Shown piece after piece: positions 3,410-23,564 of a stretch of DNA of 64,000 nt. The position numbers and the translations under genes were made by a program. The first letter of the stretch is position 1; each line of letters starts with the position of its first letter. Below the pieces are notes generated by a model. That model saw only the letters and a program-made list of their open reading frames with translations. It was not told where the DNA came from and did not search any database. Source of the DNA: Bdellovibrionales bacterium RIFOXYD12_FULL_39_22 (GTDB taxonomy: Bacteria; Bdellovibrionota; Bacteriovoracia; Bacteriovoracales; Bacteriovoracaceae); NCBI GenBank assembly GCA_001770205.1, contig MEQL01000012.1:62001-126000 (forward strand), in the 5' to 3' direction.

Positions 3410-3576
3410 ATACCAAACACCAACAACAACCAATCATTCTATTCCACTTCTTAAAATCTTAAAAATAAATCATTTTGCTCTATTGATAATTTTAATTGCT
3501 GCTTTAGAATTTACTCACGTAAACAACTAATCTGTCGATAGATGCATAAATTAAATTTTTACGGGAGTTAATTCTC

Positions 3577-5535
3577 ATGGAAGAAAAGAAAAAAACTATT
3601 CTCTATTTATGCAATTGCGGAAAAAATATTGCGGAATTTATCAACATGGATGAATTACAAACCTGGGCAAAATCCCAAGGTAATATTGATGCTGTAGAGA
3701 TCCATGATCTTCTCTGTGCACCAAACGGTAAATCCTTTTTTAAGGAGAAACTCAACGCTAGCAAAGCAGAAAACGTAATCATCGCCGCCTGCTCTCCTAA
3801 AATGCATGAGGCCACCTTTTCCAAACTAGCAGAAGAGGCTTCTGTCAATAGTGGACGAGTCTTGATGGCCAATATTCGGGAACAGTGCTCTTGGGTTACC
3901 AAAGATAAAGAGCACGCGACTAAAAAGGCCAAGCATCTAATCAGTGCGGCCTTGGCCAAAGCTCCTTTCTTAGAAAATATTGAACATCGCTCGCTAGAGT
4001 GTCTTACTGACCTTTTGATTATTGGGGGCGGCGTGGCCGGTATTGAAGCGGCCATCACTGCTTCGCGCGCCGGCCGCAAGGTTTACATTGTTGATAAAAA
4101 TATCTCTTTAGGTGGACACGTCATCACAACTGAAGAAGTTGCCCCACACATGGAATGCGCTCCTTGTATGTTGGCACCTCGACTGGCGATGATAAAAAAT
4201 GATCCCAATATTCAAGTAATAACTAACGCGGAAGTAAAGGCCGTGCGCGGCTTTAAAGGAAATTTTGAGGCCAAAATAAAAGTAAAAAAACGCTATATTG
4301 AAAATTCCTGTATTGGTTGCGAGGCCTGTTTTCCCGTATGTCCAGTAGAAAGAAAAAGTGAGTTCCATTTGGGAATGGGATCCACCAAGGCCGTCTACAC
4401 ATTATTTCCCGGCTCTGTTCCTGCGGCGGCAATTATTGACGACTCTCTCTGCAAACACTTTTCCGATAAAAGTTGCAATGATGCCTGCGTGAAAGAGTGT
4501 CCCTTTGGATCAATTAATTTTGAACAGACAGATAGTGAGCTGATAGTTAAGGTGGGTGCCGTTGTGGTGGCATCTGGTTTTGACAGTTTCAACCCCGCCA
4601 AACATCCTTCCACGGCCACCCATCTAAAATATGGGGAGTTAAACAACGTATATACCATAAATGAGTTTGAACGGTTGGCCGCCTCCAATGGCCCCAGCGG
4701 AGGAAGAGTCTTACTGAAAGACGGAACCTCTCCAAAAAATGTGGCGGTTATTCACTGTGTAGGCTCAAGGCGCGAAGATATTTTAAATTACTGCTCCGGA
4801 ACTTGCTGTGTCAGTGCTACCAAAGTTGGCCATATGCTACGCAAGCAAGACAAGGAGATCAAAGTAATTAATGTACACAACGATCTCTCTTTTGCTACGC
4901 CAGAAGAATATAGCTTTTATACCAAAGAGCGGACCGCCGGAACTGACTATCGACGCTCAACAGATCAAAGTGCTGTCAAATTGGCCAGCAATGGTAAGGC
5001 CATTAAGGTAAGCGCTCCGGGAATAACTTCTTTTGATGCAGATATGGTTATCTTGGCCACTGGCGCTATCCCGGCAAAAAGCACTCCTGAGCTTGCCTCT
5101 CTTTTGAATATTGAAACTGATAAATTTGGTTTTTTTAAATCGGCCAGTTCTTTGTTAGAAAAAACCCTCTCCACTATAGATGGAATTCATGTAGTCGGAA
5201 GCGCCCAACACCCGGCCAGTGTTGGAGACTCTATTGCGCTGGCCCACTCGGCCACGGCCGAAATTTTAAGCTCGCTAATGCCAGGAAGAAAAATTGAATT
5301 AGAAGTGGCCACTGCTACTATTGATAAAGAGAGATGTGCTGGATGTAAACTCTGCATCTCCGTCTGTCCATATAGCGCCGTCGTTTTTAATAGCGAGAAA
5401 AAAATATCAGAAGTCATCGAGGCCATTTGTCGAGGATGTGGTACCTGTACTGCCTCCTGCCCCAGCGGCGCGAGCAAAGCACGCATGTTTACCAATGAAC
5501 AAATTGCCGCAGAAATTGGAGGATTGTTTAAATGA
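3577..5535 (+). CDS. hdrA: Heterodisulfide reductase subunit A (FAD, Fe-S)
   Basis: CNCG, AACSP and NIREQCSW N-terminus; IGGGVAG FAD motif; inserted 2x[4Fe-4S] ferredoxin; EFERL; CVGSR...YCSGTCCVSATK; C-terminal 2x[4Fe-4S] ferredoxin. Confidence 0.93.
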   Translation: MEEKKKTILYLCNCGKNIAEFINMDELQTWAKSQGNIDAVEIHDLLCAPNGKSFFKEKLNASKAENVIIAACSPKMHEATFSKLAEEASVNSGRVLMANIREQCSWVTKDKEHATKKAKHLISAALAKAPFLENIEHRSLECLTDLLIIGGGVAGIEAAITASRAGRKVYIVDKNISLGGHVITTEEVAPHMECAPCMLAPRLAMIKNDPNIQVITNAEVKAVRGFKGNFEAKIKVKKRYIENSCIGCEACFPVCPVERKSEFHLGMGSTKAVYTLFPGSVPAAAIIDDSLCKHFSDKSCNDACVKECPFGSINFEQTDSELIVKVGAVVVASGFDSFNPAKHPSTATHLKYGELNNVYTINEFERLAASNGPSGGRVLLKDGTSPKNVAVIHCVGSRREDILNYCSGTCCVSATKVGHMLRKQDKEIKVINVHNDLSFATPEEYSFYTKERTAGTDYRRSTDQSAVKLASNGKAIKVSAPGITSFDADMVILATGAIPAKSTPELASLLNIETDKFGFFKSASSLLEKTLSTIDGIHVVGSAQHPASVGDSIALAHSATAEILSSLMPGRKIELEVATATIDKERCAGCKLCISVCPYSAVVFNSEKKISEVIEAICRGCGTCTASCPSGASKARMFTNEQIAAEIGGLFK

Positions 5536-5972
5536 CAACAGAATTTAATCCCAAAATTGTGGCCTTTGTTTGCAACTGGTGCTCCTATGCTGGAGCAGAT
5601 AAAGCAGGAGGCCAAAGACTAGATTATGCTCACAACGTGGAATTAATACGAGTTATGTGTAGTGGGCGTGTCACCCCTTCCTTTGTGATGGAGGCCTTTG
5701 AAAAAGGGGCCGATGGCGTGATGGTACTGGGTTGTCACCCGGGAGATTGTCACTATCGCACGGGAAATTATAAGGCCAAACGGCGCTTTACCCTTTTCCA
5801 AAAAATGCTCTCGCAATTTGGCGTTGATCCTCGGCGCTTTAAGCTGGATTGGGTGGCCGCTGGCGAAGGTGCTAAATTTCAAAAAGTCTCCAATGAAATT
5901 ACAGAAGAAGTAAAAAAGCTAGGCCCTCTAAAACTAACTGGTTTTGTAAAAGAACGAGGTAATGATCTATGA
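5532..5972 (+). CDS. mvhD: Methyl-viologen-reducing hydrogenase delta subunit ([2Fe-2S])
   Basis: FVCNWCSYAGAD, RVMCSGRV, GCHPGDCHY; overlaps the hdrA stop (ATGA). Confidence 0.93.
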   Translation: MTTEFNPKIVAFVCNWCSYAGADKAGGQRLDYAHNVELIRVMCSGRVTPSFVMEAFEKGADGVMVLGCHPGDCHYRTGNYKAKRRFTLFQKMLSQFGVDPRRFKLDWVAAGEGAKFQKVSNEITEEVKKLGPLKLTGFVKERGNDL

Positions 5973-6937
5973 GTAAACCAAAGGTAACTTTTTATTGGTG
6001 TGCCTCTTGTGGCGGCTGCGAAGAAACCGTAGTTGATCTAGCAGAGGGAGTTTTGGATGTTGTCGCGGCCGTAGACATTGTTTTATGGCCCGTAGCACTT
6101 GATTTCAAGTACAAAGATATAGAAGCTATGGCCGATAAATCGATTGCGGTCTCTTTTATCAATGGAGCAGTGCGAACTTCTGAGCAAGAACATATTTGCA
6201 AACTACTTCGCCAAAAATCTCAACTAGTGGTCTCTTTTGGCAGTTGTGCCGGAAGCGGAGGAATTCCCGCTTTGGCCAATCTAACCAACAAACAGGATAT
6301 TTTCACTACCGTTTACCTAGATAACCCTAGTCTTGATAATAAAGAGAAAAAGGTTCCCAAAGAACTTTCGCGAGAAGGAAAATATGATCTAACACTTCCC
6401 TCTTTCTACGACACCGTTTATAAGCTCGATGATATAATCGAGGTGGATTACTATCTTCCTGGTTGTCCGCCCACCCCAGAACTTATTGCGCAGGCGGTGG
6501 GGGCCATCTTAAAAAATCAGCTCCCCCCGAAGGGAACAATCCTTTCTCCCAATAAGGCATTATGTAGTAGCTGCAAGCTCAATGACTCAAAGCCAGAAGA
6601 TATAGCTATCAAAGAGATTAAACGAGTAATCGATATCAAGCTTGATCCTAGCAAATGCTATTTAGCACAGGGAGTAGTTTGTATGGGCCCGGCCACTCGT
6701 GATGGCTGTGGAGTAAGTTGCATTAACGGAAATATGCCTTGTACTGGCTGCTTTGGCCCGACCGATTCGGTAAAAGATCAGGGAGCAGAGATGATCTCAG
6801 CATTAGGGGGAATTATCGATGCTGATAGCAGCGAACAGTTAAACAAATGTTTTGCCAGACTGCCAGATCCCGCAGGAACATTTTATCGTTACGGCATGAG
6901 TGCTTCTCTTTTGGGAAGTAAAAATAAAAAGGAGTAG
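5969..6937 (+). CDS. mvhG: [NiFe]-hydrogenase small subunit
   Basis: CASCGGCE, FGSCA, PGCPP, CYLAQGVVCMGPATRDGC, PCTGCFGP. Confidence 0.92.
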   Translation: MSKPKVTFYWCASCGGCEETVVDLAEGVLDVVAAVDIVLWPVALDFKYKDIEAMADKSIAVSFINGAVRTSEQEHICKLLRQKSQLVVSFGSCAGSGGIPALANLTNKQDIFTTVYLDNPSLDNKEKKVPKELSREGKYDLTLPSFYDTVYKLDDIIEVDYYLPGCPPTPELIAQAVGAILKNQLPPKGTILSPNKALCSSCKLNDSKPEDIAIKEIKRVIDIKLDPSKCYLAQGVVCMGPATRDGCGVSCINGNMPCTGCFGPTDSVKDQGAEMISALGGIIDADSSEQLNKCFARLPDPAGTFYRYGMSASLLGSKNKKE

Positions 6938-6940
6938 AAT

Positions 6941-8434
6941 GTGGGAAAAGTAATTACCATTGATCCAATCACCCGCTTAGAGGGACATGGAAAAATTTCA
7001 ATCATGCTAGATGATGCCGGCGATGTTGAACGCGCCTTCATGCAAGTTCCTGAGTTGCGCGGTTTTGAACGCTTCTGTATCGGCCGGCCGGCAGAAGAGA
7101 TGCCCCAGATTACTTCTCGCATTTGTGGAGTATGTCCAACGGCCCACCACATGGCCGGAACGGTAACTTTGGACGCTCTTTTTAAAGTAGATCCTACTCC
7201 TGAAGCGCATGCTATTCGCGAATTGTTCTACAATCTTTTTATGTTTGAAGATCACACTATTCATTTCTATTTTTTAGGCGGCCCGGATTTTATTGTTGGC
7301 CCACAAGCACCTGGAGCACAAAGAAATATCCTGGGGGTAATTGATAAAGTGGGAGTGGAGATTGGTAAAAAAGTTATTATGATCCGCAAGCGCTGCCGTT
7401 CTCTAATGAGTCAAATTGGTGGAAAAACAATCCATCCAGTGCTGGGCCTACCAGGTGGAGTGGCAAAACCCTTATCCAAAGAAACTCATGCAGAGTTAAA
7501 ACTTTTTGCCCAAGATGCTATCGAGTTTGCTAAATTTACTCTGCAAGCATTTTCCGATATTGTGTTAAAAAATAAGGCCTATGTTGATCTAATTTTATCT
7601 GACGCCTACACTCATCACACCAACTATCTTGGAACCGTGGATAAAAATCAAAAAGTAAATTTTTACCAAGGAGTACAGCGCATCGTGGGGCCAACCGGAG
7701 AGATCATTGATGAATTCAGTGCGAAAGATTATACTCAGCATGTGGCCGAGCATGTAGAAGAGTGGAGCTATATAAAATTTCCTTTTGCTAAAAAAATTGG
7801 TTGGAAGGGATTTGTTGATGGCGCACAAAGTGGGGTTATGCGGGTGGGCCCACTGGCCCGACTAAATGTTTCCAAGGGAATGGCCACTCCCGCGGCGCAT
7901 GCTGAATATGAAAAAATGTATGCTACTTTAGCAGCAAAAAATCAAATTGCTCATCAAACTTTGGCAATTCACTACGCTCGCCTAGTAGAACTACTTTACG
8001 CTGCCGAGCGAGTTCATGAACTGGCGCAAAATGATGCTATCTGTTCTGATAATACGCGCAACATGAAGATGGGAATCCCTAGCGAAGGAGTCGGAATTGT
8101 AGAGGCACCACGCGGCACGCTCCTGCATCACTACAAAAGTGATAATCAGGGAATCCTTACTGGAGTAAACCTGATCGTGGCAACCGTCTTCAACTCACCT
8201 TCAATGTGCATGTCTATTGAAAAAGTGGCAAAAAATGTAATAAAAAAGGGACAGGTTAATGATGGATTGCTTAATATGGTGGAGATGGCATTCCGGGCCT
8301 ATGATCCTTGTCTTTCCTGTGCTACCCACTCGCTTCCTGGAAAAATGCCTTTGATCGTAGAGATGGTTGATAAAAACCATAAACCAATACAAACTATAAC
8401 CCGTGACTGCTCTGGCAATGAACACAAAGAGTAA
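6941..8434 (+). CDS. mvhA: Group 3c-type [NiFe]-hydrogenase large subunit
   Basis: ITRLEGH, L1 motif RICGVCPTAH, EAPRG, L2 motif RAYDPCLSCATH followed by a cleavable C-terminal extension. Confidence 0.93.
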   Translation: MGKVITIDPITRLEGHGKISIMLDDAGDVERAFMQVPELRGFERFCIGRPAEEMPQITSRICGVCPTAHHMAGTVTLDALFKVDPTPEAHAIRELFYNLFMFEDHTIHFYFLGGPDFIVGPQAPGAQRNILGVIDKVGVEIGKKVIMIRKRCRSLMSQIGGKTIHPVLGLPGGVAKPLSKETHAELKLFAQDAIEFAKFTLQAFSDIVLKNKAYVDLILSDAYTHHTNYLGTVDKNQKVNFYQGVQRIVGPTGEIIDEFSAKDYTQHVAEHVEEWSYIKFPFAKKIGWKGFVDGAQSGVMRVGPLARLNVSKGMATPAAHAEYEKMYATLAAKNQIAHQTLAIHYARLVELLYAAERVHELAQNDAICSDNTRNMKMGIPSEGVGIVEAPRGTLLHHYKSDNQGILTGVNLIVATVFNSPSMCMSIEKVAKNVIKKGQVNDGLLNMVEMAFRAYDPCLSCATHSLPGKMPLIVEMVDKNHKPIQTITRDCSGNEHKE

Positions 8435-8458
8435 TCACACAACGGATGAGGAAATATT

Positions 8459-8680
8459 ATGGCCGACAAAGTTTTAGATTATCGTGGACTCAAATGTCCC
8501 CAGCCAACTCTTAAAGTTACTATTATCTCGGGCACTATTCCCGCAGGACAGGTGGTAGAAGTTAAGGCCGATTGCCCCAGCTTCCCCAAAGATATTGCAA
8601 AATGGTGTGCGGACTCTGGCAGAGTACTAGTTAGCTGCGTAGAAAGTGGTGGAGTACATACTGCTACTATTCAGTTTTAG
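8459..8680 (+). CDS. tusA: TusA/SirA-family sulfur carrier
   Basis: LDYRGLKCPQP (CPxP motif), DIAKWC; 73 aa. Confidence 0.85.
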   Translation: MADKVLDYRGLKCPQPTLKVTIISGTIPAGQVVEVKADCPSFPKDIAKWCADSGRVLVSCVESGGVHTATIQF

Positions 8681-8717
8681 CTTTTGTTGCTACACAACTG
8701 AGAATAGCTTTTTTGTA

Positions 8718-9197
8718 TTAACAAATTTGATAGTTATATTCGTTCTGAATAATATCTAAGACCCGTTCTACTGCTTGCAAAGCAGCAGCTTCCACCTCTT
8801 TTGACATATTAAGACTAACCGTGGAATTATCACCAATTTCGACGGCCACTATTTTTATCACTTCCGGTATTTTCATCTCTAATTTTTTGGCCATTAAAAG
8901 TGCATCAAAAAAACCTACATCGTGAATCATCGAGCTGCGAGGGGTAAAATTAAAATCAGCAGGAGAAAACTCCACAATCTCCCCTATTGGGAACTGGCCA
9001 GTTTTAATGGAGTCAATAATAATAGCGTGGTCATAATCCAAAATACTATCTAAGAGCTTCAGTCCACCAATTTCTGCAACTTCCAAATTAATCTGGGGGG
9101 AAGTAATAACCTTTTGCAGGTAGTCTAAAATTTTAAGGCCCACAATATCATCGGATAAAATAGAATTTCCTAGTCCCAAAATAACAAGTCTTGGCAC
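8718..9197 (-). CDS. Hydrogenase maturation endopeptidase (HyaD/HycI family)
   Basis: ILGLGNSILSDDIVG, IIIDSI, SSMIHD. Confidence 0.9.
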   Translation of the reverse strand: MPRLVILGLGNSILSDDIVGLKILDYLQKVITSPQINLEVAEIGGLKLLDSILDYDHAIIIDSIKTGQFPIGEIVEFSPADFNFTPRSSMIHDVGFFDALLMAKKLEMKIPEVIKIVAVEIGDNSTVSLNMSKEVEAAALQAVERVLDIIQNEYNYQIC

Positions 9198-9326: not shown

Positions 9327-10796
9327 ATGCTTGCTAAAATGAATATTTCTCAAAAACTAATTAGCGGTTTTTCCATCATCTTTTTTCTTTTTGCTGTAGT
9401 GGTCATTTTTTTGATCACGGAGATGTATCAATTATCGTCCCTGCAAGAGGAATCCACAAAACGCTCTGCCAATGTTCTAAAAGTTAGTAACGCAATGGAG
9501 ACAATATACGCTTACTACACAGTAACCGCCGACGCGATTGTTAATCGCAATCTGCTCACCACCGAAAGTGCCATGTCGGAATTTGAAAAGCAGATGAGAG
9601 ATGATTTTTCGGCCATAGATAAAATTGTAAGCAACGATAAAGAGCGAGCTTTAGCGGAAGCATATAAAATAAATTTCCAAGAGTTTATTAATCTATTTAA
9701 AGATAACGTTTTGCCCATTTTGAAAAGCAAAGTTAATGAGCAAGCACTAGATCAACTCTCCATGTTTGATATCTCTGCAGCAAACAGCTACATGGTAGAT
9801 AAACGAACGGTGGCAGATAGTTCATTGCGAGAAATAATCCTCTCTATTAGACAAAAAATGGATGATGCTAATAATCTTTTTCAAGCTACCAGACAACGCA
9901 TTTTGATAATTGCCATTTCAATGGCATTTATCTCTTTTCTCATCGCCCTCATTGTAGTTTATCTAGTAACTCGTGATATAAATAGGGCCGGCAAGATAAT
10001 CTCCTTATCCATCGAAGAAATTATGGAGGCCTCCGGCCAAGTGGCCAGTGGCAATGTTGAACTATCCTCGAGAACTCAAGAGCAAGCGGCCTCACTAGAA
10101 GAAACCGCCTCTACGCTTGAAGAGATCACGGCCACTGTAAAACAAAGTGCTGATAATGCTCAAAGCGCTGAACTCTCTTCTAAAAATGCGCTGGATTCTG
10201 CAACCAAAGGAGCAGAACTTTCAGTACAAGCAACTTCTGCGATGCAAGAGATTGCAAAAAGTAGCGAACAAATTTCCAATATCGTTAATATGGTGGAAGA
10301 GATTGCCTTTCAAACTAATATATTGGCCATTAATGCCGCCATTGAAGCGGCCAAGGCCGGTGAAATGGGCAAGGGCTTTGCAGTCGTGGCCATTGAAGTC
10401 CGCGACCTAGCACAGCGTGCGGCCGATGCCGCCAAAGAGATTAAAGACCTTATTGTTAAAAGTAACGACAAGGTTCAAAAAGGTTCCATGTTAGTAAATG
10501 AAAATGCCGAACGTCTCTTAGATATTGCTCAAAGCGTGCAAAAGGTCTCTGACATAATGCAAGAGATGGCCGCGGGAACACGAGAACAATCTTCGGCCAT
10601 CGAACAAATCAACCTTGCCATTACCCAGCTAGATTCCACCACCCAGGCCAACTCCTCTCTAGTAGAAAAAGTATCGTCAAATGCAGAAACCATGTCTAAT
10701 AAGGCCAACGAGATTTCTCAATCAGTTCAAAAGTTTTTTCAAAAACATCAATCCACTCATTTGGCGAGCAAGCCCCCTGAGGAGAACATGGCCTGA
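9327..10796 (+). CDS. Methyl-accepting chemotaxis protein (2 TM, periplasmic helical sensor)
   Basis: Two TM helices; [44 protein letters not shown] hairpin. Confidence 0.95.
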
Positions 10797-11734
10797 CAGA
10801 AGGCCGAACTCTTCGACAAACAGATCATTTGTGATTTTTTGTCTTTAAACGTTTTAATCACGTGGCCCATTAACTTCTCTTCAAAAAAATGCTCCGCTTC
10901 TAGGAAAAAAAGTAGTGATGGTTTAATGGCGGTTTTATTTTTATAAAAATAGTAAATTAAAAAAGCTGCTAACTCGCTCTGAGGAGAATGAATGGTAAAG
11001 AGAGGAGAAATTGCGCCAGTTTCATCGGCAATGATAAAAGGTTTTTCTTCTCCTTCGATAAACTCTAATTGAGAATTTTTTCCAGTTATCTCTTTTAGTT
11101 TTGCCGAGACCTCTAGCAATAAGGCCTTCCAAACGTTGGGGGCCGCCGAAGTAAGTAACTTTGTGGAATTTAGCAGTCCCTCCAAGAGACGAAAAGATTT
11201 ATCACCCTTTCCTCCCAAATACACAGCACTCTGAAAAATCTTATTAATAATCATCAGTAAACGCGCAAAGGCCTTGGGATCATTAACCAAATATTCATTA
11301 CCCTCTTTAAATTTTACCAGTCCCGTATTTTGCTGTAGTAAAAAAACTCTTGTTGTATTAAAGATTACCTCGGATAAAAAACGCTCACCATTTTTTATAG
11401 AAAATATCACTCCTATTTTTGCGTTAGATAATTCCCCAACATGATTTAACCATCCTAAAATATCTTTGAACTCATCGGTTAAGGCAGAAAGTTCAAATGA
11501 GAGAACTATTCGCGATAATTTGGAAGCTGACAAATCTGCCACCATTTGTGAATCCAATTGCACGCTGGCCGCTCCTAATTTCAAAGTAATAGGTGCCCGA
11601 TGAAAAGAGGCAAAAAAAGTACTAAAATCACCAATGGAATTGGCCAGATCACTCTCTTTTTTTACAACTACCAAGTCATGCTTTTGTAATTGAATGGACT
11701 CTGCTAAATCTACTTGCAAAATAGTTGTATGCAT
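10757..11734 (-). CDS. Hypothetical protein, last gene of che cluster 1
   Basis: 325-aa ORF with SD GAGGA, co-oriented with the che genes; no clear motif. Confidence 0.65.
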
Positions 11735-11752
11735 CAGTTCTTATCCTCACTC

Positions 11753-13297
11753 TTAGTTTTTATTTAAAGAACTATCCTTACCCATCGCCTCTTGCGCCAT
11801 GATATTTGCCTGATCAATTGCTTTAATTACCTCTCCTAAATTTTTGCTAGTCGATAAAATGCTACTGGCCGAACCGGCCGCTACTCCCACTTGGCCTGCA
11901 ATATCTTTTGCCACAAAACTCTGCTCTTCTACGCTAGTTGCCACTGCGCTGGTAAATTCCACCACGGAAGTAATGATTTCCTTGATGCGCGCAATTTCCT
12001 GATGGGCCGAAGCAATGGTTTCTGTAATTTTCTCAATCTGCGAGCTAATTACCTCGGTAGATTTTATCGTCTGATTGGCCAGGCCTTTTACTTCGGATGC
12101 AACTACCGCAAATCCTCTTCCCGCCTCGCCCGCACTGGCCGCCTCGATAGTAGCATTAAGCGCCAGTAAGTTTGTTTGCGTAGCAATGGTTTCAATCATA
12201 TTAACAATTTTTCCAATCTCTTTGGAATTTTCTTTTAAGTGATCCATTATCTCCGAAGAAACCTGTGCACGTTTATCTGCTTCTTGGGCCACTCCTGCGG
12301 CCTTCGTAGTATTTTTTGAAATCTCATTAATTGCACCACACATCTCATCTAACGCAACGGCCGTGGATGTTACACTGGCGGAAGTTTTGGTGGCCGACTG
12401 AAAAACCTTCTCGATATCTTCTCGGGCCCTGACTGATTTAACGACTAACATATCAATGGCCGCACGAACTCCTTGTGCTTTGGCCTCAGCGGTAGAATTT
12501 TGTTTTTTAAAAAAGGCAGTTTGAGTTTCTAGCGAAGAAGAAATCTCGGCAATTTTTTCTTGGGCCTTTTGCAACTCGAGATTTTTTTGGACAATCTCTT
12601 CTTTTTGCGTATTAAACTCTTTGTTGTCATGCAAATAAAGAAGCCGCCGGCCTTCTCCATTGTGTTGCAGAAGATATGCCAAACAAGTGAAAGAGTGTGG
12701 TTGGCCGTCTTTATAAAGATAAATCTGACATTTTTCCTGTGAATTACTATCTAACCACAAAGATAACTCCTCTTGTAGAGGCAAGGGCATGAACATCGCA
12801 AAAAGCGAAAAGAAACCATCCTCTTCGGATAAGGGATGGGACATAAATTCGCTGGCCGCTTCATTGGCAAAAAATACCTTTTTGTCGCTAGATATTTCTA
12901 TAATTGGAGAAGAAATCTTATTCAACAAGGATAACCAATGATCTGCCTGGGCCTTATTGTCGCTGGCCATTTCCACTAAACGATTAATACTATCTATAAA
13001 TCCACTCAGCTCGGCATTTGTATCAACACGAGTTAATTTTAATAATGTTCCTTCAAATATGGCAGATAGATCATTAACGCTTCGAGAAAGCGGCGAAATT
13101 ATTTTTTTCAAATTAATATGTAAAAAAAGTAATGATATTGCTAAAATACCTAAGAGGGCCACTAATTCAATTCCTATTCCAGTTTTTCCCTGCAACAGTC
13201 GCTCTTTTTGAAAAAAATAGATGGCCATCATGGCCGGCAGTAATAAAACATAGACTGTCTTTATCACCTCTTTAAAAGTAGTCATTTTAACTTTCAT
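11753..13297 (-). CDS. Methyl-accepting chemotaxis protein with HAMP and PAS-like region
   Basis: Two TM helices; HAMP-like [17 protein letters not shown]-like [38 protein letters not shown]. Confidence 0.9.
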
Positions 13298-13307
13298 ATT
13301 TATTACC

Positions 13308-13733
13308 TCACATCCTTACAAAACCTGTAATAAGTGTTTCTAGAACTTTTGCTGAAAAATTATCTGCTTTGAATGGTTTCATAATATATCCATCCACTCC
13401 CATTTTTAAAACTTTTACAATATCATCTTTTTTTGTATGGCCAGTGACCATTAAAAACGGAATGATCTTTGACGAAGGAACTTTTTTTACCATCTGCAAA
13501 ACCTGAACTCCCGTCACCTTGGGCATATCCCAGTCGCAAATAATAAGATCAACCCTACCACGCACTTGAATAATCTTGGCCAGCTCACTTAAGGCCATCG
13601 CTCCATCTTCTGCTAAATACAAATTACCTTCCTTGATTCCTAAACCTAGCAACATTTTTTTATGATTGGCCCGCATTAGCGCAGTATCGTCGACCACCAA
13701 AATAATACGGTTTTCCATTGAAAATAGTTCCAT
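13308..13733 (-). CDS. cheY: CheY-like response regulator
   Basis: ILVVDD, ICDWDMP, MVTG, YIMKPF. Confidence 0.88.
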
Positions 13734-14612
13734 CTATTTCTCTCCATCTGCTAATTTATAGGTGGTAGTAGAAAATCTTTCATCCAAAACTAGTTGAGAA
13801 AAACCTACAGGAAGAAACTCCGAGGATCCTAGCACTAAGGTTCCTTTATCTGAGAGTGACTTGGCCAATTTCTCCACCACTTGCGCCTTGAGATCTTCTC
13901 GAAAATAGATCAAAACATTGCGACAAAAAATTATATCAAATTTTTCTGATCCGAGATGGAAGGGATCTAGAAGATTCAAGGCATCAAAAGATGCCATTTT
14001 TCTTATATCACTTTTTAGTTGATAGCGAGTATCATCGAAGCGATCCATATAAGCAAGTAATCGGGAGGTAGGCCCTCGAGAAATCTGTGCCTCCGAATAT
14101 ATTCCATCACTGGCCACTTTGAGTGATTTTGGAGAAAGATCGGTCCCTCTGATATTAATCATCAAGCGACAATCATCTGCCATTTTCTGCCGAATAAAAT
14201 AATCACAAAAAGCAATGGCCATGGAATAGGCCTCCTGCCCAGTAGCGGCAGCTGCCGACCAAATTTTCAAAGGGCGTTTTTTTCCTAGCACTATTTGCCC
14301 TACGAAATAGGGAATAATTTCTTTTTCAAAAACTTCCCACAATTTATCATCTCTAAACCAGAAGGTTTCATTGGTAGTCAAAAGTTCTAACATCTCAAAA
14401 AGCAAACGCGGCATATTTTTTACAGAAGAATAAATCTCCTTATAATCTTTCAGCTCATGCTTTATGGCAAAATCGGAAAGGCGTGATTGCATTAAATATC
14501 CTTTATCCGCTCCCAAATGTAGGCCTGAATATTTTTCAATCATGCTGCCAAGCAAGCGAATCTCTTCGCTAGAAGGCAATGGCAAAATTCTATTGGTATT
14601 TAAATAACTCAT
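13734..14612 (-). CDS. cheR: Chemotaxis methyltransferase
   Basis: LTTNETFWFRD, IWSAAAATGQEAYS, FDIIFCRNVLIYF, LGSSE. Confidence 0.93.
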   Translation of the reverse strand: MSYLNTNRILPLPSSEEIRLLGSMIEKYSGLHLGADKGYLMQSRLSDFAIKHELKDYKEIYSSVKNMPRLLFEMLELLTTNETFWFRDDKLWEVFEKEIIPYFVGQIVLGKKRPLKIWSAAAATGQEAYSMAIAFCDYFIRQKMADDCRLMINIRGTDLSPKSLKVASDGIYSEAQISRGPTSRLLAYMDRFDDTRYQLKSDIRKMASFDALNLLDPFHLGSEKFDIIFCRNVLIYFREDLKAQVVEKLAKSLSDKGTLVLGSSEFLPVGFSQLVLDERFSTTTYKLADGEK

Positions 14613-14621
14613 GCCTATTTT

Positions 14622-15275
14622 TCATCCTTTCCCTTTTACTAATTTGTTAATTCTCATCGCCAAGCGCTCAAGCGAAACTATTTCACTAACCACCCCTTTT
14701 TCCCATGTGGCCTTGGGCATTCCCCATACTACCGAGGACTTTTCATCTTGAATAATTATATAGTTTCGGGCCTCAGTGGCCATTCGATACGCCCCCTCCG
14801 CGCCATCATTTCCCATTCCAGTCATAATCAATCCAACGATGTTGTGATTATTCAAATCGGCAACTGAATTAAAAAGCACATCTACTGAGGGGCGACAACT
14901 ATGTACATTGGGGCCATCGCGTAAAACAATTTTGTATCGTCCTGGCCGAGATAAATTCGTATTCATTTTTAGATACATATGAATTCCGCCTGGGCAAAGA
15001 TAAATTTCTCCGGGCATCGGCACATCATCGTGTTGGGCCTCACAAACTTTTAAAGAAGTGTGTCTTTGTAGTTGTTGGGCCAACTGCTTTGTAAATCCCT
15101 CTTTAACATGTAGAACAATAACGATGGGGCAAGTAAGGTTAGGGTCAAGTCCCTTTACTAAAACAGAAAGAGCTTCTGGCCCTCCCGTGGAAACGCCAAT
15201 GACTAACATCTCCACGGCCGCCGGAATTTCTCTTTTTAGAATTTTGGCCTCCAAGTCAACCACGCTACTATTCAC
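14622..15275 (-). CDS. cheB: CheB methylesterase, catalytic domain only
   Basis: GVSTGGP, VLH, CRPSVDVLF, MTGMGNDG, VWGMP; no receiver domain. Confidence 0.92.
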   Translation of the reverse strand: MNSSVVDLEAKILKREIPAAVEMLVIGVSTGGPEALSVLVKGLDPNLTCPIVIVLHVKEGFTKQLAQQLQRHTSLKVCEAQHDDVPMPGEIYLCPGGIHMYLKMNTNLSRPGRYKIVLRDGPNVHSCRPSVDVLFNSVADLNNHNIVGLIMTGMGNDGAEGAYRMATEARNYIIIQDEKSSVVWGMPKATWEKGVVSEIVSLERLAMRINKLVKGKG

Positions 15276-15289
15276 TTATAGATTCTCCT

Positions 15290-15760
15290 TCAAATTTTTT
15301 TAAAAAATTTAAACGCATCAATGATCAACACCAATCCATGATCTAATTGTACCACTCCCGAAATGACATCCAATAAATTCTGCGGGAAATTTTGAGAAAT
15401 TGCTTTAACTTTTCTATTGTCTATTTCTAAAACATCTCCAATGCTGTTTATCACTAGGCCAACTAAATCATTTCCCAGATCTCCGGCCGCTATCAGTCCC
15501 TTTTCTACTATGGGACGAATTAGATCACTATTTTTAAAAATTAAGACATTATCATTTTTCTTATTCAGTGGAGTAAAATGCTTTGTGAACATACCTGGAT
15601 GGATTAAAGAAACTACGTTACCTCGCAAATTCATCAGTCCACAATATTCTTCTTTGGCACCAGGAACATTTACTATTTCAAAGATGGGAGAAATTTCTTT
15701 GATAAATAAAACATCAACTCCGTAAAGTTCATTACCTATTTTAAAAGTACTTATTTGCAT
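15290..15760 (-). CDS. cheW: CheW adaptor
   Basis: FKIGNELYGVD, VPGA...GLMNLRGNVV. Confidence 0.88.
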   Translation of the reverse strand: MQISTFKIGNELYGVDVLFIKEISPIFEIVNVPGAKEEYCGLMNLRGNVVSLIHPGMFTKHFTPLNKKNDNVLIFKNSDLIRPIVEKGLIAAGDLGNDLVGLVINSIGDVLEIDNRKVKAISQNFPQNLLDVISGVVQLDHGLVLIIDAFKFFKKI

Positions 15761-18600
15761 GACAAAATATCCTGGATTGAATTTAACAGCTCTAATTTAT
15801 CCGTCTTTTTCAACCACCGTTTCATACCTAAGCTCATTCCCTTATCTACCATTTTTTTATTGGTGAGACTGGTGATGGCAATTACTGGTACTTGCCGAAT
15901 ATTGCTCATGGCGTTTAAGCGCTCTGTTAACTCGAGGCCGCTCATTTCCGGCATTTCAATATCTGTAAGAAGTAAGTCATAATCATGATCAGCGTTCATC
16001 AATCGCTCTAATGCCAACTTCCCATTTCCAACCAAATCAACAGAATGTTCATCTTCTTTCAGATAAGACATAACCATCTTTTGATAAAGAGGAGTATCTT
16101 CTGCAAAAAGAATTTTATATTTGCCCCGCTTCTTACTTTCTCGAAAGCAATCGTGAACAAAAGATTCAAAAAACTTATGAATGTCTAACAAAAAAGTTAT
16201 CTTATCATCAATAATTGCCGTCCCCATAAAATGGGGGCCCAGGGTAGTGTTGGGTTCAATATGCAAAGAGACTTCTTTAGTATCCACTATTTTCCCAATA
16301 AGTAAGGCCATTGGAATTTTTAGTTCTTTGGGAATAATAATAAAGCCCTCTCCTTTCATGGGCAGATTAGTTTGGTTTTGTTCTAAATCAACAATCATGG
16401 TAGTGCTTTCCATGTAATTTAAATACTTCTGTTTTTCGATAAATTGAATATTACTCTTTTCAATTTGATCTACTCGCTTGATAGCAGAAACCGGAATGGC
16501 ATAGCGCTCTTGTCCATTATTATCAAAAATTAAAATATTAATTCGATCAGTAGAAGAACTCTGTTTTTGACGAATTATCTTTTGTGATAGGCCCTGCGCC
16601 TTCTCAAAAATCAGACGATTCTTGCTTGCAATCCCATGAACATCAACAATGAGTGCAACTTTCCCATCACCTAAAATAGTTACCCCCGCGTAACTAGACA
16701 GATAACGCAAATGCATTGGCAGCGATTTTACTATAATCTCTTCAAAGCCAATAATTTTATCCACAATCACGGCAAAACGATTATGCCCTGTAGTCACCAC
16801 CATTACTTTTATATTTTTCTCGATAGAGGGTGGACGAAAGTTGGCAATCACCTCTTTCCTATCTAGACTAGATCCATCCTCTAGGATTTCTACACTAGAG
16901 AGATTGCGCCGTTTTTCCACTTGACGCTGGCCAGTCTCTGGATGAGTAAAATAGCGAAGAAGTCCCACGCAATCTGCCAAATGCATAAGCGGAATTAGTT
17001 CTCCTCGCAATTGAATTACTTGCCCATCTAAAATGGTTGCAATCTTTTCAGAAAATTCCGTGGGGGTAACTCGTAAAAGTTCTTCCACACTCACCTGTGG
17101 AACGGCAAAAGTTTGGCCTCCCACTTCAACAATCAAAGAAGAAATTATGGCCAACGTCAGCGGTAAGGAAATTTTAACGGTACTTCCGCGGCCGATGGCC
17201 GTTTCAATATCCACACTGCCGCCTAATTTTTCAATATTAGTCTTAACCACATCCATGCCAACCCCTCGCCCAGAAAGATCTGTTACCTTTTCTGCGGTGG
17301 AAAATCCCGGCATAAAAATTAATCTTAATTTCTCTTCATGCTTCATCTGATGGTAGTGCTCCGTCGAAATCACTCCTTTTTCCAATGCCTTTTTAGCAAC
17401 TTTCTCCGCATCAATTCCTCTCCCATCGTCACTCACTTCGATATGTACCAATCCCCCAGCATGAAAGGCCTTGAGGGTAATTTTCCCTTCTCGCGGCTTA
17501 CCTGCCGCTTCTCGCTCCTTTTCTGTCTCTAATCCATGATCTGCACAGTTGCGCACTAAATGGTTTAAAGGATCGGAGATGGCCTCAATGATAGTTTTAT
17601 CTAATTCAACATTCTCTCCCTCGGTAGATACATTTATGGCCTTGCCTAATTTCCCGGCCATATCTCTAACCAGCCGAGGAAATTTGTTAAAGGCCAAGGA
17701 AATGGGCTGCATGCGCATACTCATAATTTCTGTCTGAATTTCTGTGGTAATGCGATTAGTATTTTGGAAAATTCCTCCCGCGGCCTGATTTTTTATATCA
17801 TCTCTATAAAAACTCAAAAGCTGATTGCGCGCCAGAACCAACTCGCCGGCCAAATTAACCAACTTGTTAAGTTTAGCAACACTAATTCGCAAGGTTTGAT
17901 CAGCTGCCGAAACCGCAGTAGTTGTAGTTGTTGCTGTTGTTGTATGGACATTAGAAGTGGGCGTTGCTACTTTTGCTATTGGAAGTTTTTTCTTTTCTTT
18001 TGAATCAGAAACTGTCTCTAATTGCTGCTTTAACTCTTTGGACATCTCAAGAAGTGTAGCTATATCATCTTGTACACTATCTTCCTTGCCTAATTGCTTG
18101 CGCAAATCAGCGGAGAATGCCAACAACATAGCAACATCATTTTGCACATTCTGAGGAGATATCTCCGTCTTGATTTCCGTTTTCTCTTCCGTTTCCATTT
18201 TCGTTTCAGTATTTGTTTCTATTTCTGTTGCTGTTTCTTGTGTTTCTACAAACTTCAAAGAATTCTCTATCTCCGCAAAGTCAAAAGAGTCTGACGGATT
18301 AGACAAATGAGACTTAAGCAGATCTGTTCCGGCCAAAAGAGCATCAATACTTTTTTTGCTGGGAGAAATACTTCCCTCCCTCACCGCTCCCAGAAAATTT
18401 TCCATAGTGTGTGCCAACTTCATCATGGAATCATATTCCAAGAGGCCAGCACCACCTTTTATACTATGAATAGCGCGAAAGAGTTCATTAACCAAATCAG
18501 TTTCAGTTGAATTTTCTAACTCTAACAGTTTGCGTTCAAGCAACGTCAGTGCCTCGCTAGTATCATCAATAAATAGTTTTACTAAATCATCATCGGCCAT
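15751..18600 (-). CDS. cheA: Hybrid CheA histidine kinase (HPt, dimerisation, HATPase, two CheW-like domains, C-terminal receiver)
   Basis: FRAIHSIKG, HLVRNCADHG, DDGRG, SGRGVGMDVV, two P5-like segments, ILFAED...TDIEMP receiver. Confidence 0.94.
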   Translation of the reverse strand: MADDDLVKLFIDDTSEALTLLERKLLELENSTETDLVNELFRAIHSIKGGAGLLEYDSMMKLAHTMENFLGAVREGSISPSKKSIDALLAGTDLLKSHLSNPSDSFDFAEIENSLKFVETQETATEIETNTETKMETEEKTEIKTEISPQNVQNDVAMLLAFSADLRKQLGKEDSVQDDIATLLEMSKELKQQLETVSDSKEKKKLPIAKVATPTSNVHTTTATTTTTAVSAADQTLRISVAKLNKLVNLAGELVLARNQLLSFYRDDIKNQAAGGIFQNTNRITTEIQTEIMSMRMQPISLAFNKFPRLVRDMAGKLGKAINVSTEGENVELDKTIIEAISDPLNHLVRNCADHGLETEKEREAAGKPREGKITLKAFHAGGLVHIEVSDDGRGIDAEKVAKKALEKGVISTEHYHQMKHEEKLRLIFMPGFSTAEKVTDLSGRGVGMDVVKTNIEKLGGSVDIETAIGRGSTVKISLPLTLAIISSLIVEVGGQTFAVPQVSVEELLRVTPTEFSEKIATILDGQVIQLRGELIPLMHLADCVGLLRYFTHPETGQRQVEKRRNLSSVEILEDGSSLDRKEVIANFRPPSIEKNIKVMVVTTGHNRFAVIVDKIIGFEEIIVKSLPMHLRYLSSYAGVTILGDGKVALIVDVHGIASKNRLIFEKAQGLSQKIIRQKQSSSTDRINILIFDNNGQERYAIPVSAIKRVDQIEKSNIQFIEKQKYLNYMESTTMIVDLEQNQTNLPMKGEGFIIIPKELKIPMALLIGKIVDTKEVSLHIEPNTTLGPHFMGTAIIDDKITFLLDIHKFFESFVHDCFRESKKRGKYKILFAEDTPLYQKMVMSYLKEDEHSVDLVGNGKLALERLMNADHDYDLLLTDIEMPEMSGLELTERLNAMSNIRQVPVIAITSLTNKKMVDKGMSLGMKRWLKKTDKLELLNSIQDILSCK

Positions 18601-18610
18601 ATAAAATTTT

Positions 18611-19828
18611 CTACTCTAGCGGCGATTGTTGTTTGGTTATTTTCGCACTATCTAAAACTTTTCTCATTTCACTTAATTCTTCTTGTAATTCACTAATTCG
18701 GTTGGCCATTATTTCTCCCGTAACTACAATTTCACTCCCTACCTTGCCATTACCACTCAACATTTCCAAAATGGAAATTAGCTGCTGATTAATATCTCCC
18801 CCTAAAGAAGACATGGTTGAGATTAATTTATTTGATGACTCCGATTTAGCGGCAATATTCTTCGTGGAGGTAGATGCTGTTTGCATAGTTTTAGAAATAT
18901 CCGAAATGGCAAAACTCTGTTCTTCAATGCTCGTGGCCAAAGTGTTGGTAAATTCTCCCACCTGCGCAATAATTTCTTGGATACGAGCAGTCTCTTCATG
19001 CGCAATCTTAACCGTATTTTGAATTTTTCCTATTTGCTCCGAAATAACGTTGGTGGAATTAATTGTCTGATTTGCCAAACTTTTTATTTCTGAGGCAACA
19101 ACCGCAAATCCAGCTCCGGCCTCGTTGGCACTGGCCGCCTCAATCGTGGCGTTCAGAGAGAGCAAGTTGGTTTGATCTGCAATGTCTTCAATAATATTTA
19201 TAATTTTACTAATCTGCTTAGAATTTGCAGACAATTCCTTCATTACCTCAAATGAATTATGAACTTTATCCGTCGCCTCTTTGGAAATTGCCGCCACTTG
19301 AACGGTCTGCTTAGATAAATTATTAATGGTAGCAGAGAGCTCTTCTGTGGCAGTAGCAATAGTGGCAATCGGCCCTGCAACTTCATTGGTATTGGTGGAA
19401 ACTAAGGCCAAGTCATTTGATACATCTTTGGTTTTATCTCCAAATTTCAACGAATCACTCTTCACCTGTTCTGTCGACTTTATAATCTCTTTGGTCTGAC
19501 CAGAGAGCAGTTGGATATTTTTAAAAAAATCGTTGGCCACCAAGGCCATGGCCGAAACGATGGAGGTTGCTGTTTCAACTTTTTGGAAAAGCGTAGTTGC
19601 CATGTTATGAAAATCATCAGCGACAGCTACCTTTGGCGGCAAGGCCGCACTGGCCTTAATTTTTTGCTGCAGTTGTGCCAACTGCTGTAAATAGTCCTCT
19701 TTTTCTAAAATAAGCTGCCCAACTTTTGCTTGTTCTTGTGTGAATAGCTTTTTTATTTTGGACAAGCTATGCCATAACGCCAGCGCCAATAGCGGAAAAA
19801 CTAGTAATAGAAACTCCCAAAACTTCAT
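18611..19828 (-). CDS. Methyl-accepting chemotaxis protein, single TM anchor
   Basis: N-terminal TM helix; [30 protein letters not shown]. Confidence 0.9.
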   Translation of the reverse strand: MKFWEFLLLVFPLLALALWHSLSKIKKLFTQEQAKVGQLILEKEDYLQQLAQLQQKIKASAALPPKVAVADDFHNMATTLFQKVETATSIVSAMALVANDFFKNIQLLSGQTKEIIKSTEQVKSDSLKFGDKTKDVSNDLALVSTNTNEVAGPIATIATATEELSATINNLSKQTVQVAAISKEATDKVHNSFEVMKELSANSKQISKIINIIEDIADQTNLLSLNATIEAASANEAGAGFAVVASEIKSLANQTINSTNVISEQIGKIQNTVKIAHEETARIQEIIAQVGEFTNTLATSIEEQSFAISDISKTMQTASTSTKNIAAKSESSNKLISTMSSLGGDINQQLISILEMLSGNGKVGSEIVVTGEIMANRISELQEELSEMRKVLDSAKITKQQSPLE

Positions 19829-22406: not shown

Positions 22407-23564
22407 ATGGCATTATTCTCTCACTCAAACATAATTAACATTACTCTATTTTGCATACTTTTTTTTATTGCCATTTTTATAGACAATAACTTACTACTGG
22501 CAACAGATGCCTTTCAACTAAACTGCCCAACTTCTGGCCATACAATCACCACCGCCCGAAATTCTAATCTAAATTTTGAATATCTCTGCACTTTAAACGG
22601 TCTCTTTGATGGCAATATGATTGAACTTCATCCGACAGGAAGTATCGCCAAAAAAGGCCACTACACCAAAGGGGCAATGAGCGGAAGGTGGGAACGTTTT
22701 TTTATAAATGGTATAAAATCAGATTCGGGAATTTGGCTAAATGATAGGCCAATAGGACTTTGGACATTCTGGTACGAGAATGGCCAAAAAAAAGAAGAAG
22801 GAAATTTTAAAGATGGTGAAAAAGATGGAGAGTGGATCTATTGGAATGAAGAGGGCCTGTTTCAATCTCGCGGTGAATATCGTTTCGGAGATATTGTTCG
22901 ACAACACACTCTTACTCTCTCCTGGCGTAATCTTAGCGAAGAAATTAAATATACTGACATCAACAAAAAAACGGCCAAGCTTTTTTCTAAAATATCCTCC
23001 GTCGCAGAAATTGACCTCCAACAAAAAGTAGCTCCTCATTGCACAACTCATTTACAACTACGTTTAAAATATTTAACTCTGGCAAACAGCGCAGAAGTTG
23101 ATCTTCTACAAACCCAGCCGCTGCGGGGAGGAGTAACTTTAGGTGCCAGTTATCAATACGGTGATAATATTTTTTCGAGCAATTTCATGTTAGACGAAAC
23201 GATCTTTGCTACCAGTGAGGCCAATTCAACTCTCTCCACACATTCTGCACTAATTCCCGGGGGCTCTTTAGAGTGGGCCTATCTTTTTTGGAAAAATTCC
23301 CGCTACGCCACTTCTTCATTTTTTCAATTAGGTCTGTTATTTAAATCCGAAATTGATCAGGAGTGGTCAGTGAGTAGCTCTCCCATGTTTTTAGTGGGGG
23401 CCCAAATTGACCGTACAATTAATCTACGCTCTAACATTTTGCTTAAATCTTACTACCAAGAAAGTTCTCAAACTATCAGACAAAAAGAAGATAGCATTAC
23501 TTCCGAATATCCCCAGCAAACAAAACGACTAGCACTTGAAATAAGTTATCGTTGGAATTTTTAA
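22407..23564 (+). CDS. Secreted MORN-variant repeat protein with C-terminal beta-barrel-like domain
   Basis: Hydrophobic N-terminus; repeats such as GLWTFWYENGQKKEEGNFKDGEKDGEWIYW; amphipathic strands ending ISYRWNF. Confidence 0.7.
   Translation: MALFSHSNIINITLFCILFFIAIFIDNNLLLATDAFQLNCPTSGHTITTARNSNLNFEYLCTLNGLFDGNMIELHPTGSIAKKGHYTKGAMSGRWERFFINGIKSDSGIWLNDRPIGLWTFWYENGQKKEEGNFKDGEKDGEWIYWNEEGLFQSRGEYRFGDIVRQHTLTLSWRNLSEEIKYTDINKKTAKLFSKISSVAEIDLQQKVAPHCTTHLQLRLKYLTLANSAEVDLLQTQPLRGGVTLGASYQYGDNIFSSNFMLDETIFATSEANSTLSTHSALIPGGSLEWAYLFWKNSRYATSSFFQLGLLFKSEIDQEWSVSSSPMFLVGAQIDRTINLRSNILLKSYYQESSQTIRQKEDSITSEYPQQTKRLALEISYRWNF

Follow-up and report, generated by a model that had tools for sequence, protein, structure and literature searches.

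What accepts the high-potential electrons of a hydrogenase-linked HdrA when the genes for its usual partners, HdrB and HdrC, are missing from the operon? The question is raised by a locus in Bdellovibrionales bacterium RIFOXYD12_FULL_39_22 (assembly GCA_001770205.1), where the stretch of DNA analyzed here (MEQL01000012.1, 62,001–126,000 of the forward strand; 64,000 nt, hereafter the window, whose numbering is used throughout) carries an hdrA-mvhD-mvhG-mvhA operon that ends in a gene for the sulfur carrier protein TusA. Among uncultured anaerobic bacteria, group 3c hydrogenases and HdrA modules occur widely, and outside methanogens no high-potential electron acceptor of such modules is known. 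An earlier note on this DNA had proposed that H2 oxidation here feeds ferredoxin together with a protein-bound (per)sulfide. The gene set and its genomic linkage agree with that proposal; the role of TusA as acceptor goes further than they do, and a sensory role is a serious rival to it. The locus encodes a variant of the known Mvh-HdrA module: where HdrBC would stand, it has a dedicated three-cysteine TusA, and the host is an unexpected one. Our reading, to which we assign a probability of about 0.42, is that HdrA-MvhADG splits the electrons of H2 between ferredoxin and a TusA-borne sulfur acceptor.

A packed operon for HdrA, an Mvh-type hydrogenase and TusA

The five genes occupy positions 3577-8680 of the forward strand: hdrA (3577-5535; 652 aa, with flavin adenine dinucleotide (FAD) and several [4Fe-4S] motifs), mvhD (5532-5972; 146 aa, the [2Fe-2S] connector subunit; Pfam FlpD, E = 1.5e-54), mvhG (5969-6937; 322 aa, the [NiFe] hydrogenase small subunit; Pfam Oxidored_q6, E = 2.1e-23), mvhA (6941-8434; 497 aa, the large subunit; Pfam NiFeSe_Hases) and tusA (8459-8680; 73 aa; Pfam TusA, PF01206, 56.5 bits against a cut-off of 28.6). 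Overlaps of 4 bp join hdrA to mvhD and mvhD to mvhG, gaps of 3 bp and 24 bp follow mvhG and mvhA, respectively, and a GAGGA ribosome-binding site, read from the sequence (8448-8452, forward strand), lies 6 nt upstream of the tusA ATG. Converging on tusA, with 37 bp between the two, is a gene for a hydrogenase maturation endopeptidase of the HycI/HybD family (8718-9197, reverse strand; 159 aa; Pfam HycI, E = 1.9e-10; TIGR00072, 81.8 bits, cut-off 47.45), and many related loci have a HycI homologue on one side of the operon or the other. This is the packed arrangement with a convergent protease that the earlier note had described, every open reading frame (ORF) being found in its place and the Pfam and NCBIfam assignments concurring for each gene. 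Its other structural claim, the absence of an hdrB/hdrC (CCG-domain) gene, also held, as a Pfam scan of 53 window ORFs revealed no CCG domain and there is thus no hdrB in the window. Co-transcription of the five genes as one operon would be the natural reading of such packing. A sigma-70-like site in the 167-bp gap upstream of hdrA (TTGATA-16-TAGAAT, 3483-3510, forward strand; 10/12 positions match) is a candidate promoter only, since the region holds 14 such sites against 14.1 expected by chance, and promoter and terminator scans of the region gave no signal above chance level.

Judged from its sequence, HdrA has the full-length architecture of the bifurcating type, with an N-terminal cluster domain, a thioredoxin-reductase-like FAD domain, and inserted and C-terminal ferredoxin domains. 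The alignment with methanogen HdrA 8rvu_a pairs residues 3-648 with residues 10-650 of that chain (E = 1.5e-124), and the protein also aligns end to end with the solved chain 5odc_A; the best NCBIfam models, HdrA2 and HdrA, both score below their cut-offs. The EFER and CC-x4-K strings that had first drawn attention to this HdrA are both present, the latter as YCSGTCCVSATK, and they align with ELER and YCSRVCCMYIMK of 8rvu. The Glu and Lys of these strings presumably contact the flavin, as is reported in the 2017 structure paper. Across 14 orthologues, C406, C410 and C411 of HdrA are invariant and K416 nearly so, as are five cysteines of MvhD invariant across 14 orthologues; MvhD matches 8rvu_F (E = 4.4e-52) and 5odc_D (E = 3.3e-46).

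For MvhG and MvhA the best NCBIfam models are VhuG (6.8e-59) and VhuA (1.3e-113), each below its cut-off, as are all NCBIfam Vhu models here. MvhA carries RICGVCPTAHH near its N-terminus and AYDPCLSCATH followed by a C-terminal extension, and both fit the L1 (ICGxCxxxH) and L2 (AYDPCxxCATH) patterns given for group 3c in PMC6085437. Its best PDB match is 7t2r_D, a NiFe large subunit (383.7 bits), slightly above the methanogen MvhA chains 9sw2_F (351.8) and 5odc_F (344.6). With these motifs, the adjacent MvhG and MvhD, and the maturation genes described below, MvhA/MvhG is predicted to be a group-3c-type [NiFe] hydrogenase. The operon therefore resembles methanogen MvhAGD-HdrABC (5odc, 8rvu, 9sw2) in that it has HdrA, MvhD, MvhG and MvhA, each alignable with solved subunits from end to end, and keeps the L1/L2 motifs of the hydrogenase, the FAD-region strings of HdrA and the cysteine clusters. 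It differs in that HdrB/HdrC are absent from it and a three-cysteine TusA is encoded in their place, and it belongs to a bacterium, one that has complex I and a haem-copper oxidase and in which genes for coenzyme M/B chemistry are not implied.

Complex formation, bifurcation, the direction of electron flow and TusA as acceptor are what we infer from here on. In a soluble complex, MvhA/MvhG would oxidize H2, the [2Fe-2S] cluster of MvhD would pass the electrons to the FAD of HdrA, and the HdrA flavin would split them between low-potential ferredoxin and a sulfur-based acceptor of high potential. This acceptor would be carried by, or would itself be, the three-cysteine TusA, as a Cys13 persulfide or as a Cys13-Cys39 disulfide or trisulfide; TusA would then play the part of the coenzyme M-coenzyme B heterodisulfide (CoM-S-S-CoB) in methanogens, and that proposed for DsrC in sulfate reducers. 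For H2 at -414 mV to drive the reduction of ferredoxin at about -500 mV, the acceptor has to lie above about -330 mV, a range that persulfide/disulfide couples fit.

We favor this reading because the components are complete, because hypABCDEF and the protease are present, and because the genome encodes ferredoxin-using enzymes. The host genome is 94.6% complete and contains hypA and hypB on contig C9, hypC, hypD and hypE on C57, and hypF on C20, with all six families above their cut-offs, so that the maturation set is complete. Five POR_N matches, including a 1211-aa open frame, correspond to several 2-oxoacid:ferredoxin oxidoreductases. The same enzymes would also suit a fermentative redox valve, in which H2 is evolved by confurcation from reduced ferredoxin and a thiol/persulfide donor. 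Flavin-based bifurcating enzymes are reversible, and the genome also encodes a second cytoplasmic [NiFe] hydrogenase of group-3b-like type (C43:5556-10270; L051), composed of a Fer4_22 protein, an FAD- and nicotinamide adenine dinucleotide (NAD)-type protein, a small subunit and a 518-aa large subunit, with a HycI-like protease of its own. Sequence fixes no direction, methanogen Mvh runs in the uptake direction, and we consider H2 evolution by this operon most improbable.

A three-cysteine TusA encoded beside HdrA and MvhD

To the gene content, the intact motifs and the full maturation machinery is added a near-exclusive linkage of one TusA subfamily to HdrA/MvhD. Among 40 loci chosen by MvhA from one-genome-per-species contigs, hdrA-mvhD-mvhG-mvhA recurs in most, across many phyla, and tusA is the next gene after mvhA in nine, a recurrence that argues against a chance arrangement. 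The nine come from Fibrobacterota, Chitinivibrionales, Chitinispirillaceae, Lentisphaerota, one metagenome-assembled genome (MAG) labelled Bifidobacteriales, and a Neomarinimicrobiota MAG in which a DsrE-like gene lies between mvhA and tusA; in a tenth locus (L019), hdrL-tusA-mvhD stands upstream of hdrA-mvhDGA. The Acidobacteriota, Cloacimonadota/Armatimonadota and Bacteroidota loci of this set are without tusA, and hdrB-like and hdrC-like ORFs occur together in only two of the 40 (L027 and L037).

In the reverse test, metagenome loci were selected by two TusA peptide patterns only, and mvhA, mvhD or hdrA was found within 700 bp of tusA in 78 of the best 80 of at least 482 confirmed relatives, these 80 being the most query-like relatives, not phylogenetically independent, and inclusive of one locus (L090) from the same organism as the window. 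The gene orders were mvhA-tusA in 23 loci, tusA-mvhD-hdrA in 48, tusA-hdrA in five, and tusA-hycI-hdrA and hdrA-tusA in one each; in the two loci with no such neighbor, the sequence ends on one side within about 100 bp of tusA. Conservation of tusA next to homologous operons is thus seen whether loci are chosen by MvhA or by TusA motifs, and the TusA subfamily is genomically dedicated to HdrA/MvhD, with or without a hydrogenase.

The protein itself has three cysteines that are invariant in alignments of 11 and of 14 orthologues: C13 (KCPQP), C39 (ADCPSFP) and C50 (WC). By alignment they correspond to Cys19, Asp45 and Cys56 of E. coli TusA, placing C39 where E. coli has Asp45, a residue that we take to lie on the surface around Cys19. 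Of the 80 TusA-selected loci, 79 have the full set of three cysteines, a count that is partly built in because each search pattern holds one of them. The window TusA scores above the PF01206 cut-off and has the CPxP motif (C13-P-Q-P), yet reaches only 32.5 bits against a cut-off of 78 with the E. coli TusA equivalog model NF001423, and it is of a different subfamily.

An AlphaFold2 model (predicted local distance difference test score, pLDDT, 87.6) has the element order E-H-E-H-E-E in a two-layer alpha/beta sandwich, and Foldseek superposes it on E. coli TusA from the IscS-TusA complex (3lvk_B) with a template modeling (TM) score of 0.93 and a root-mean-square deviation of 1.3 Å. In the topology of the model, C13 and C39 lie in the loops that lead from the two parallel strands into helices 1 and 2. 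Compared with E. coli TusA (1dcj, 3lvj/3lvk), the fold, the CPxP cysteine and Cys56 are conserved, whereas Asp45 is replaced by an invariant Cys and the genomic setting is that of HdrA/MvhD, not of tRNA thiolation or molybdenum cofactor pathways. Prediction of an HdrA + MvhD + TusA complex from alignments of 14 rows gave run scores of 0.00, 0.49 and 0.09 (mark 0.32) and speaks neither for nor against such a complex. A separate group of proteins (P0245 and P0273-P0281; 450-820 aa) consists of three to six tandem TusA domains with proline-rich linkers between them.

DsrE-like proteins are the classical partner of TusA in sulfur relay. In 51 of the 80 loci, the gene immediately upstream of tusA encodes a DsrE-like protein of 117-120 aa, and in L133 such a gene immediately follows tusA; in L049 the DsrE-like gene lies between mvhA and tusA. 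A common cassette is free of hydrogenase genes and comprises mvhD, dsrE-like, tusA, mvhD, a gene for a 430-aa flavoprotein, a 565-aa hdrA, two FrhB/FdhB-like genes and mvhD. It is widespread and occurs among loci L110-L169, for example L155 (6065-13074) and L130 (6614-13966), the latter with a lipoate-protein ligase gene just upstream. In L116, L145, L161, L164 and L166, the mvhD beside tusA appears as two short adjacent ORFs, which could reflect an in-frame stop (e.g. a selenocysteine codon) or a frameshift.

These arrangements also bear on the idea that TusA is an accessory protein that supplies sulfur for building or repairing the iron-sulfur (Fe-S) clusters or another cofactor of HdrA/MvhD, with no part in catalysis. 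TusA proteins are generally known to donate sulfur in several biosynthetic pathways, a protease gene adjoins tusA in the window, and in a Fibrobacterota single-cell genome (L021, 2209-7029) tusA is followed directly by hypF, hypC, hypD and hypE. The linkage to HdrA/MvhD, however, does not depend on the presence of a hydrogenase, a dedicated carrier is not required for general Fe-S assembly, and the second cysteine specific to the subfamily and the pairing with DsrE would be left unexplained, so we regard a maturation role as very unlikely.

In a quick tree of 49 MvhA rows, in which the metagenome rows had been chosen for tusA and the window branch is long, a single clade of 31 rows (Shimodaira-Hasegawa-like approximate likelihood ratio test, SH-aLRT, 99) takes in all 20 that are linked to tusA, and within this clade a Cloacimonadota/Armatimonadota subclade without tusA is nested; the tusA label requires four changes on this tree versus a shuffled mean of 15.7. 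The linkage to HdrA/MvhD, the invariant cysteines, the DsrE-like pairing, the rarity of hdrB/hdrC nearby and this MvhA clade further favor the reading of H2-fed bifurcation with TusA as the probable acceptor. A carrier encoded almost only beside HdrA/MvhD is, in any case, a testable candidate for the high-potential acceptor or for the signaling output of the module.

CCG proteins of the host and comparison with known Hdr systems

A search of the host genome for CCG domains returned two proteins, one on contig C35 and one on C61. The C35 protein is an HdrB of 281 aa with two CCG domains, preceded by HdrC (171 aa), and the pair belongs to a run of seven consecutive genes (C35:69393-75751; L005, 9394-15752): hdrC, hdrB, hdrA, an mvhD-like gene, two genes for Fe-S proteins and one for an NAD/FAD-binding FlxA-like protein. 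By domain content, this locus is an hdrCBA-flxDCBA-type cluster of the FlxABCD-HdrABC kind, and its HdrA (664 aa) is 32% identical to that of the window. Of the three findings that would have contradicted the earlier note, absent hyp genes and a lack of tusA conservation were not observed; for the third, a cognate hdrBC elsewhere, the outcome is ambiguous: the pair exists, but within a separate cluster that owns an hdrA and an mvhD.

The C61 protein (684 aa) combines a membrane part of about four to six helices with a ferredoxin domain and two CCG domains, resembling HdrE/HdrD or DsrM/DsrK. Its locus (C61:149020-157564; L006, 7021-15565) continues with four large ORFs of 652, 367, 388 and 706 aa that have no Pfam match. 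We rejected this protein as a specific partner of the operon, for it is encoded by 36 of the 40 relatives, which have neither HdrA nor TusA, and is therefore a core gene of the phylum.

HdrA-MvhADG might nonetheless borrow the C35 HdrC-HdrB, or another CCG protein, in trans, with TusA delivering the sulfur substrate of HdrB or being that substrate. The genome does contain both hdrC and hdrB, methanogen hdrA and hdrBC need not be co-located according to PMC6085437, and the same type of TusA stands beside hdrB and hdrC in another locus (L118, 3940-13085). There, tusA is followed by an hdrA::mvhD fusion (790 aa), hdrC, hdrB, and genes for an Fe-S protein and a fumarate-reductase-like flavoprotein; a two-subunit fumarase is encoded upstream, and the whole looks like an Hdr-linked cluster of thiol:fumarate-reductase type. 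Such arrangements indicate that TusA travels with HdrA/MvhD whatever feeds the module and can coexist with HdrBC.

On the other side, the C35 hdrCB genes share an operon with their own hdrA, mvhD-like and flxCBA-like genes, and the C61 fusion is a core gene. Ten genomes with tusA beside hdrA-mvhDGA were also searched (the nine with tusA downstream and L019), all MAGs of completeness not established: CCG matches occurred in eight, canonical hdrC-hdrB-hdrA in only two and an HdrD-like gene beside hdrA and mvhD in one, and two carriers had no CCG match at all. Chemistry in trans therefore seems to us decidedly unlikely.

Bacterial mvhADG genes that do not adjoin hdrABC ('isolated') are described from sulfate reducers (PMC3333476), and the window shares with these, and with Desulfovibrio FlxABCD-HdrABC, a bacterial Mvh-type hydrogenase and a host that also has an hdrCBA-flxDCBA-like cluster; unlike isolated mvhADG, it keeps hdrA, and a specific TusA subfamily travels with the module, TusA going unmentioned in the accessible part of that paper. 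In the sHdr systems of Hyphomicrobium, Aquifex and Thermomicrobium (PMC6067878, PMC6776052), TusA, often with a DsrE-type protein, is likewise encoded beside Hdr genes, and the proposed task of the sulfur carrier is to deliver substrate to an Hdr-type complex. However, sHdrA is short (6tjr, 349 aa) and matches only residues 327-577 of the window HdrA, and sHdr has two HdrB and two HdrC and runs toward sulfur oxidation. The signature set, hdrC1B1A-hyp-hdrC2B2 with dsrE3 by tusA, is not what the host has, there being no hdrB/hdrC beside tusA and no DsrE in the genome (LbpA was not searched for). LbpA is a feature of sHdr systems, which are not known to include MvhD or a hydrogenase.

DsrC, the 'bacterial heterodisulfide', offers another parallel as a small protein with two redox-active cysteines that is a proposed thiol/disulfide (trisulfide) substrate of Hdr-like enzymes, but its fold is unrelated, it was not found in the genome, and it is reduced by CCG proteins of the DsrK/HdrB type. 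Hdr genes near TusA in a Cloacimonadota MAG have been read as sulfur oxidation in PMC8542988. No description of tusA joined to mvhA or hdrA-mvhD was found in the accessible parts of the literature (PMC12142623, PMC6085437, PMC8542988, PMC6776052, PMC8528874, PMC5947623, PMC3333476), subscription reviews on TusA and on HdrA modules being beyond reach.

Several points, beyond the kinship among the 80 metagenome loci, weigh against TusA as the electron acceptor. To our knowledge, HdrA alone does not reduce sulfur compounds, and the operon encodes no subunit with a known disulfide- or persulfide-reducing site such as the non-cubane clusters of HdrB. An HdrBC does exist in the genome, and although it is already paired with its own HdrA, its use in trans is possible. 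TusA is no simple replacement for HdrBC, given that L118 encodes it beside an hdrA::mvhD fusion and hdrC-hdrB. C13 and C39 are probably neighbors, a placement based on topology and overlay on E. coli TusA, not on coordinates. Neither DsrC nor DsrE (PF02635, the TusBCDE/DsrEFH family), both of which the earlier note had singled out for a search, was found in the 94.6%-complete genome, where the window tusA is the sole TusA-family gene; how TusA would be loaded with sulfur is left unexplained by this. Finally, the chemotaxis and histidine-kinase links described below fit a signaling role at least as well.

Chemotaxis genes beside the operon, and the host

Immediately beyond the protease gene, a chemotaxis cluster (9327-19828) encodes a methyl-accepting chemotaxis protein (MCP), a 325-aa ORF without Pfam or NCBIfam match, a second MCP, a CheY-like receiver, CheR, CheB, CheW, a CheA-CheY hybrid and a further MCP. 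MCP/che genes also flank eight of 30 other hdrA-mvhDGA-tusA loci, often immediately adjacent (6/16 among loci of at least 8 kb), and the eight come from several phyla (L023, L029, L040, L042, L093, L104, L105 and L121). The corresponding counts are 0/30 for Mvh loci without tusA and 0/54 for hydrogenase-free tusA loci. The adjacent cluster may thus be functionally linked to the operon.

A second link to signaling comes from longer proteins with a closely related TusA domain, 25 of 28 of which carry a histidine-kinase ATPase domain, mostly together with PAS. Two of the three named longer proteins are from archaea, and some of the PAS histidine kinases with a C-terminal TusA (among proteins P0246-P0272) belong to Archaeoglobaceae and Halobacteriota. 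In four kinase-type sequences, comprising three full fusions (P0247, P0248, P0254) and the tail fragment of a kinase (P0251), the cysteines of KCPQP and ADCP are retained, whereas Ala takes the place of the third.

These observations suit an alternative role, in which hydrogenase-fed HdrA-MvhD-TusA is a redox, H2 or sulfur sensor and the thiol state of TusA is read by chemoreceptors or kinases for H2 or energy taxis, with no bulk catabolism. The adjacency in the window and in 8/30 loci, against 0/30 and 0/54, and the cysteines retained in the kinase fusions speak for it. However, the comparison groups come from different phyla that are perhaps simply poor in che genes, no sensor domain common to the neighboring MCPs was found (only the generic signaling domain is shared), a full [NiFe] hydrogenase with a bifurcating-type HdrA would be costly for a sensor, and the DsrE-like pairing in 52 loci points to sulfur trafficking. 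We consider a purely sensory module unlikely, though it is the rival that we take most seriously.

The sensory and catalytic readings are not mutually exclusive and can both be true. TusA might be the 'heterodisulfide' of bacterial HdrA-MvhD modules that lack HdrBC, reduced directly by HdrA as a Cys13-Cys39 disulfide, persulfide or trisulfide, with its thiol state also read by chemoreceptors and kinases. We hold this combination to be doubtful; if it is true, bifurcation would be complete without HdrB, and a single carrier would join H2 oxidation, sulfur trafficking and taxis.

The host was assigned through the methionyl-tRNA synthetase (MetRS) encoded on the same contig, whose named relatives (65-69% identity) are almost all Bdellovibrionales, Bdellovibrionia, Oligoflexia or Bdellovibrionota, supporting the Bdellovibrionota origin that the earlier note had called probable. 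Among 40 sampled Bdellovibrionota relatives, 24 of them of the same family, an MvhA-like match was found in only two (39% and 28% identity), and HdrA (E ≤ 1e-30) and the three-cysteine TusA in none. MvhA homologues at E ≤ 1e-30 number at least 8000; among the matches listed, the closest proteins are 86% and 83% identical, and the next (63-70%) come from Armatimonadota, Cloacimonadota, Fibrobacterota, Acidobacteriota, Planctomycetota and others. One groundwater- or soil-associated Bdellovibrionota lineage therefore possesses a pair of cytoplasmic hydrogenases and a pair of Hdr modules that the 40 sampled relatives were not found to share. For a member of a phylum known for aerobic predators, these suggest a way of life linked to H2 and either anaerobic or microoxic. 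The stretch was matched in DNA runs of groundwater and soil metagenomes, possibly its source, with no RNA run listed.

The G+C content of the operon (0.44-0.46) exceeds that of the genome (0.392), but composition was dropped as evidence of recent horizontal transfer: third-codon-position G+C (0.365-0.418) is like that of host genes (0.354-0.407), and nuoF and nuoG are equally G+C-rich. Acquisition of the operon, if any, would accordingly not be recent. Comparison with empty sites was limited by homologues of the upstream radical-SAM gene that occur in 5/25 relatives and are just 31-44% identical, too distant for synteny. The radical SAM and CoA-binding genes upstream of hdrA were rejected as parts of the system, since neither the 40 related genome loci nor the 79 metagenome loci other than L090 contain a homologue of them.

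Outside the operon, nuoA-N with a fused nuoCD (24651-38360) encode the full complex I that the earlier note had reported, and the window has two chemotaxis clusters. The second of these contains a 541-aa ORF (48248-49873, reverse strand) that combines CheD, a receiver and a CheB methylesterase. ORFs of 196-517 aa without a Pfam family at the thresholds used lie at 22407-24646 (forward), 41111-42569 (reverse), 43059-44612 (forward) and 10757-11734 (reverse); the 325-aa ORF between two MCP genes next to the operon is one of this Pfam-less group.

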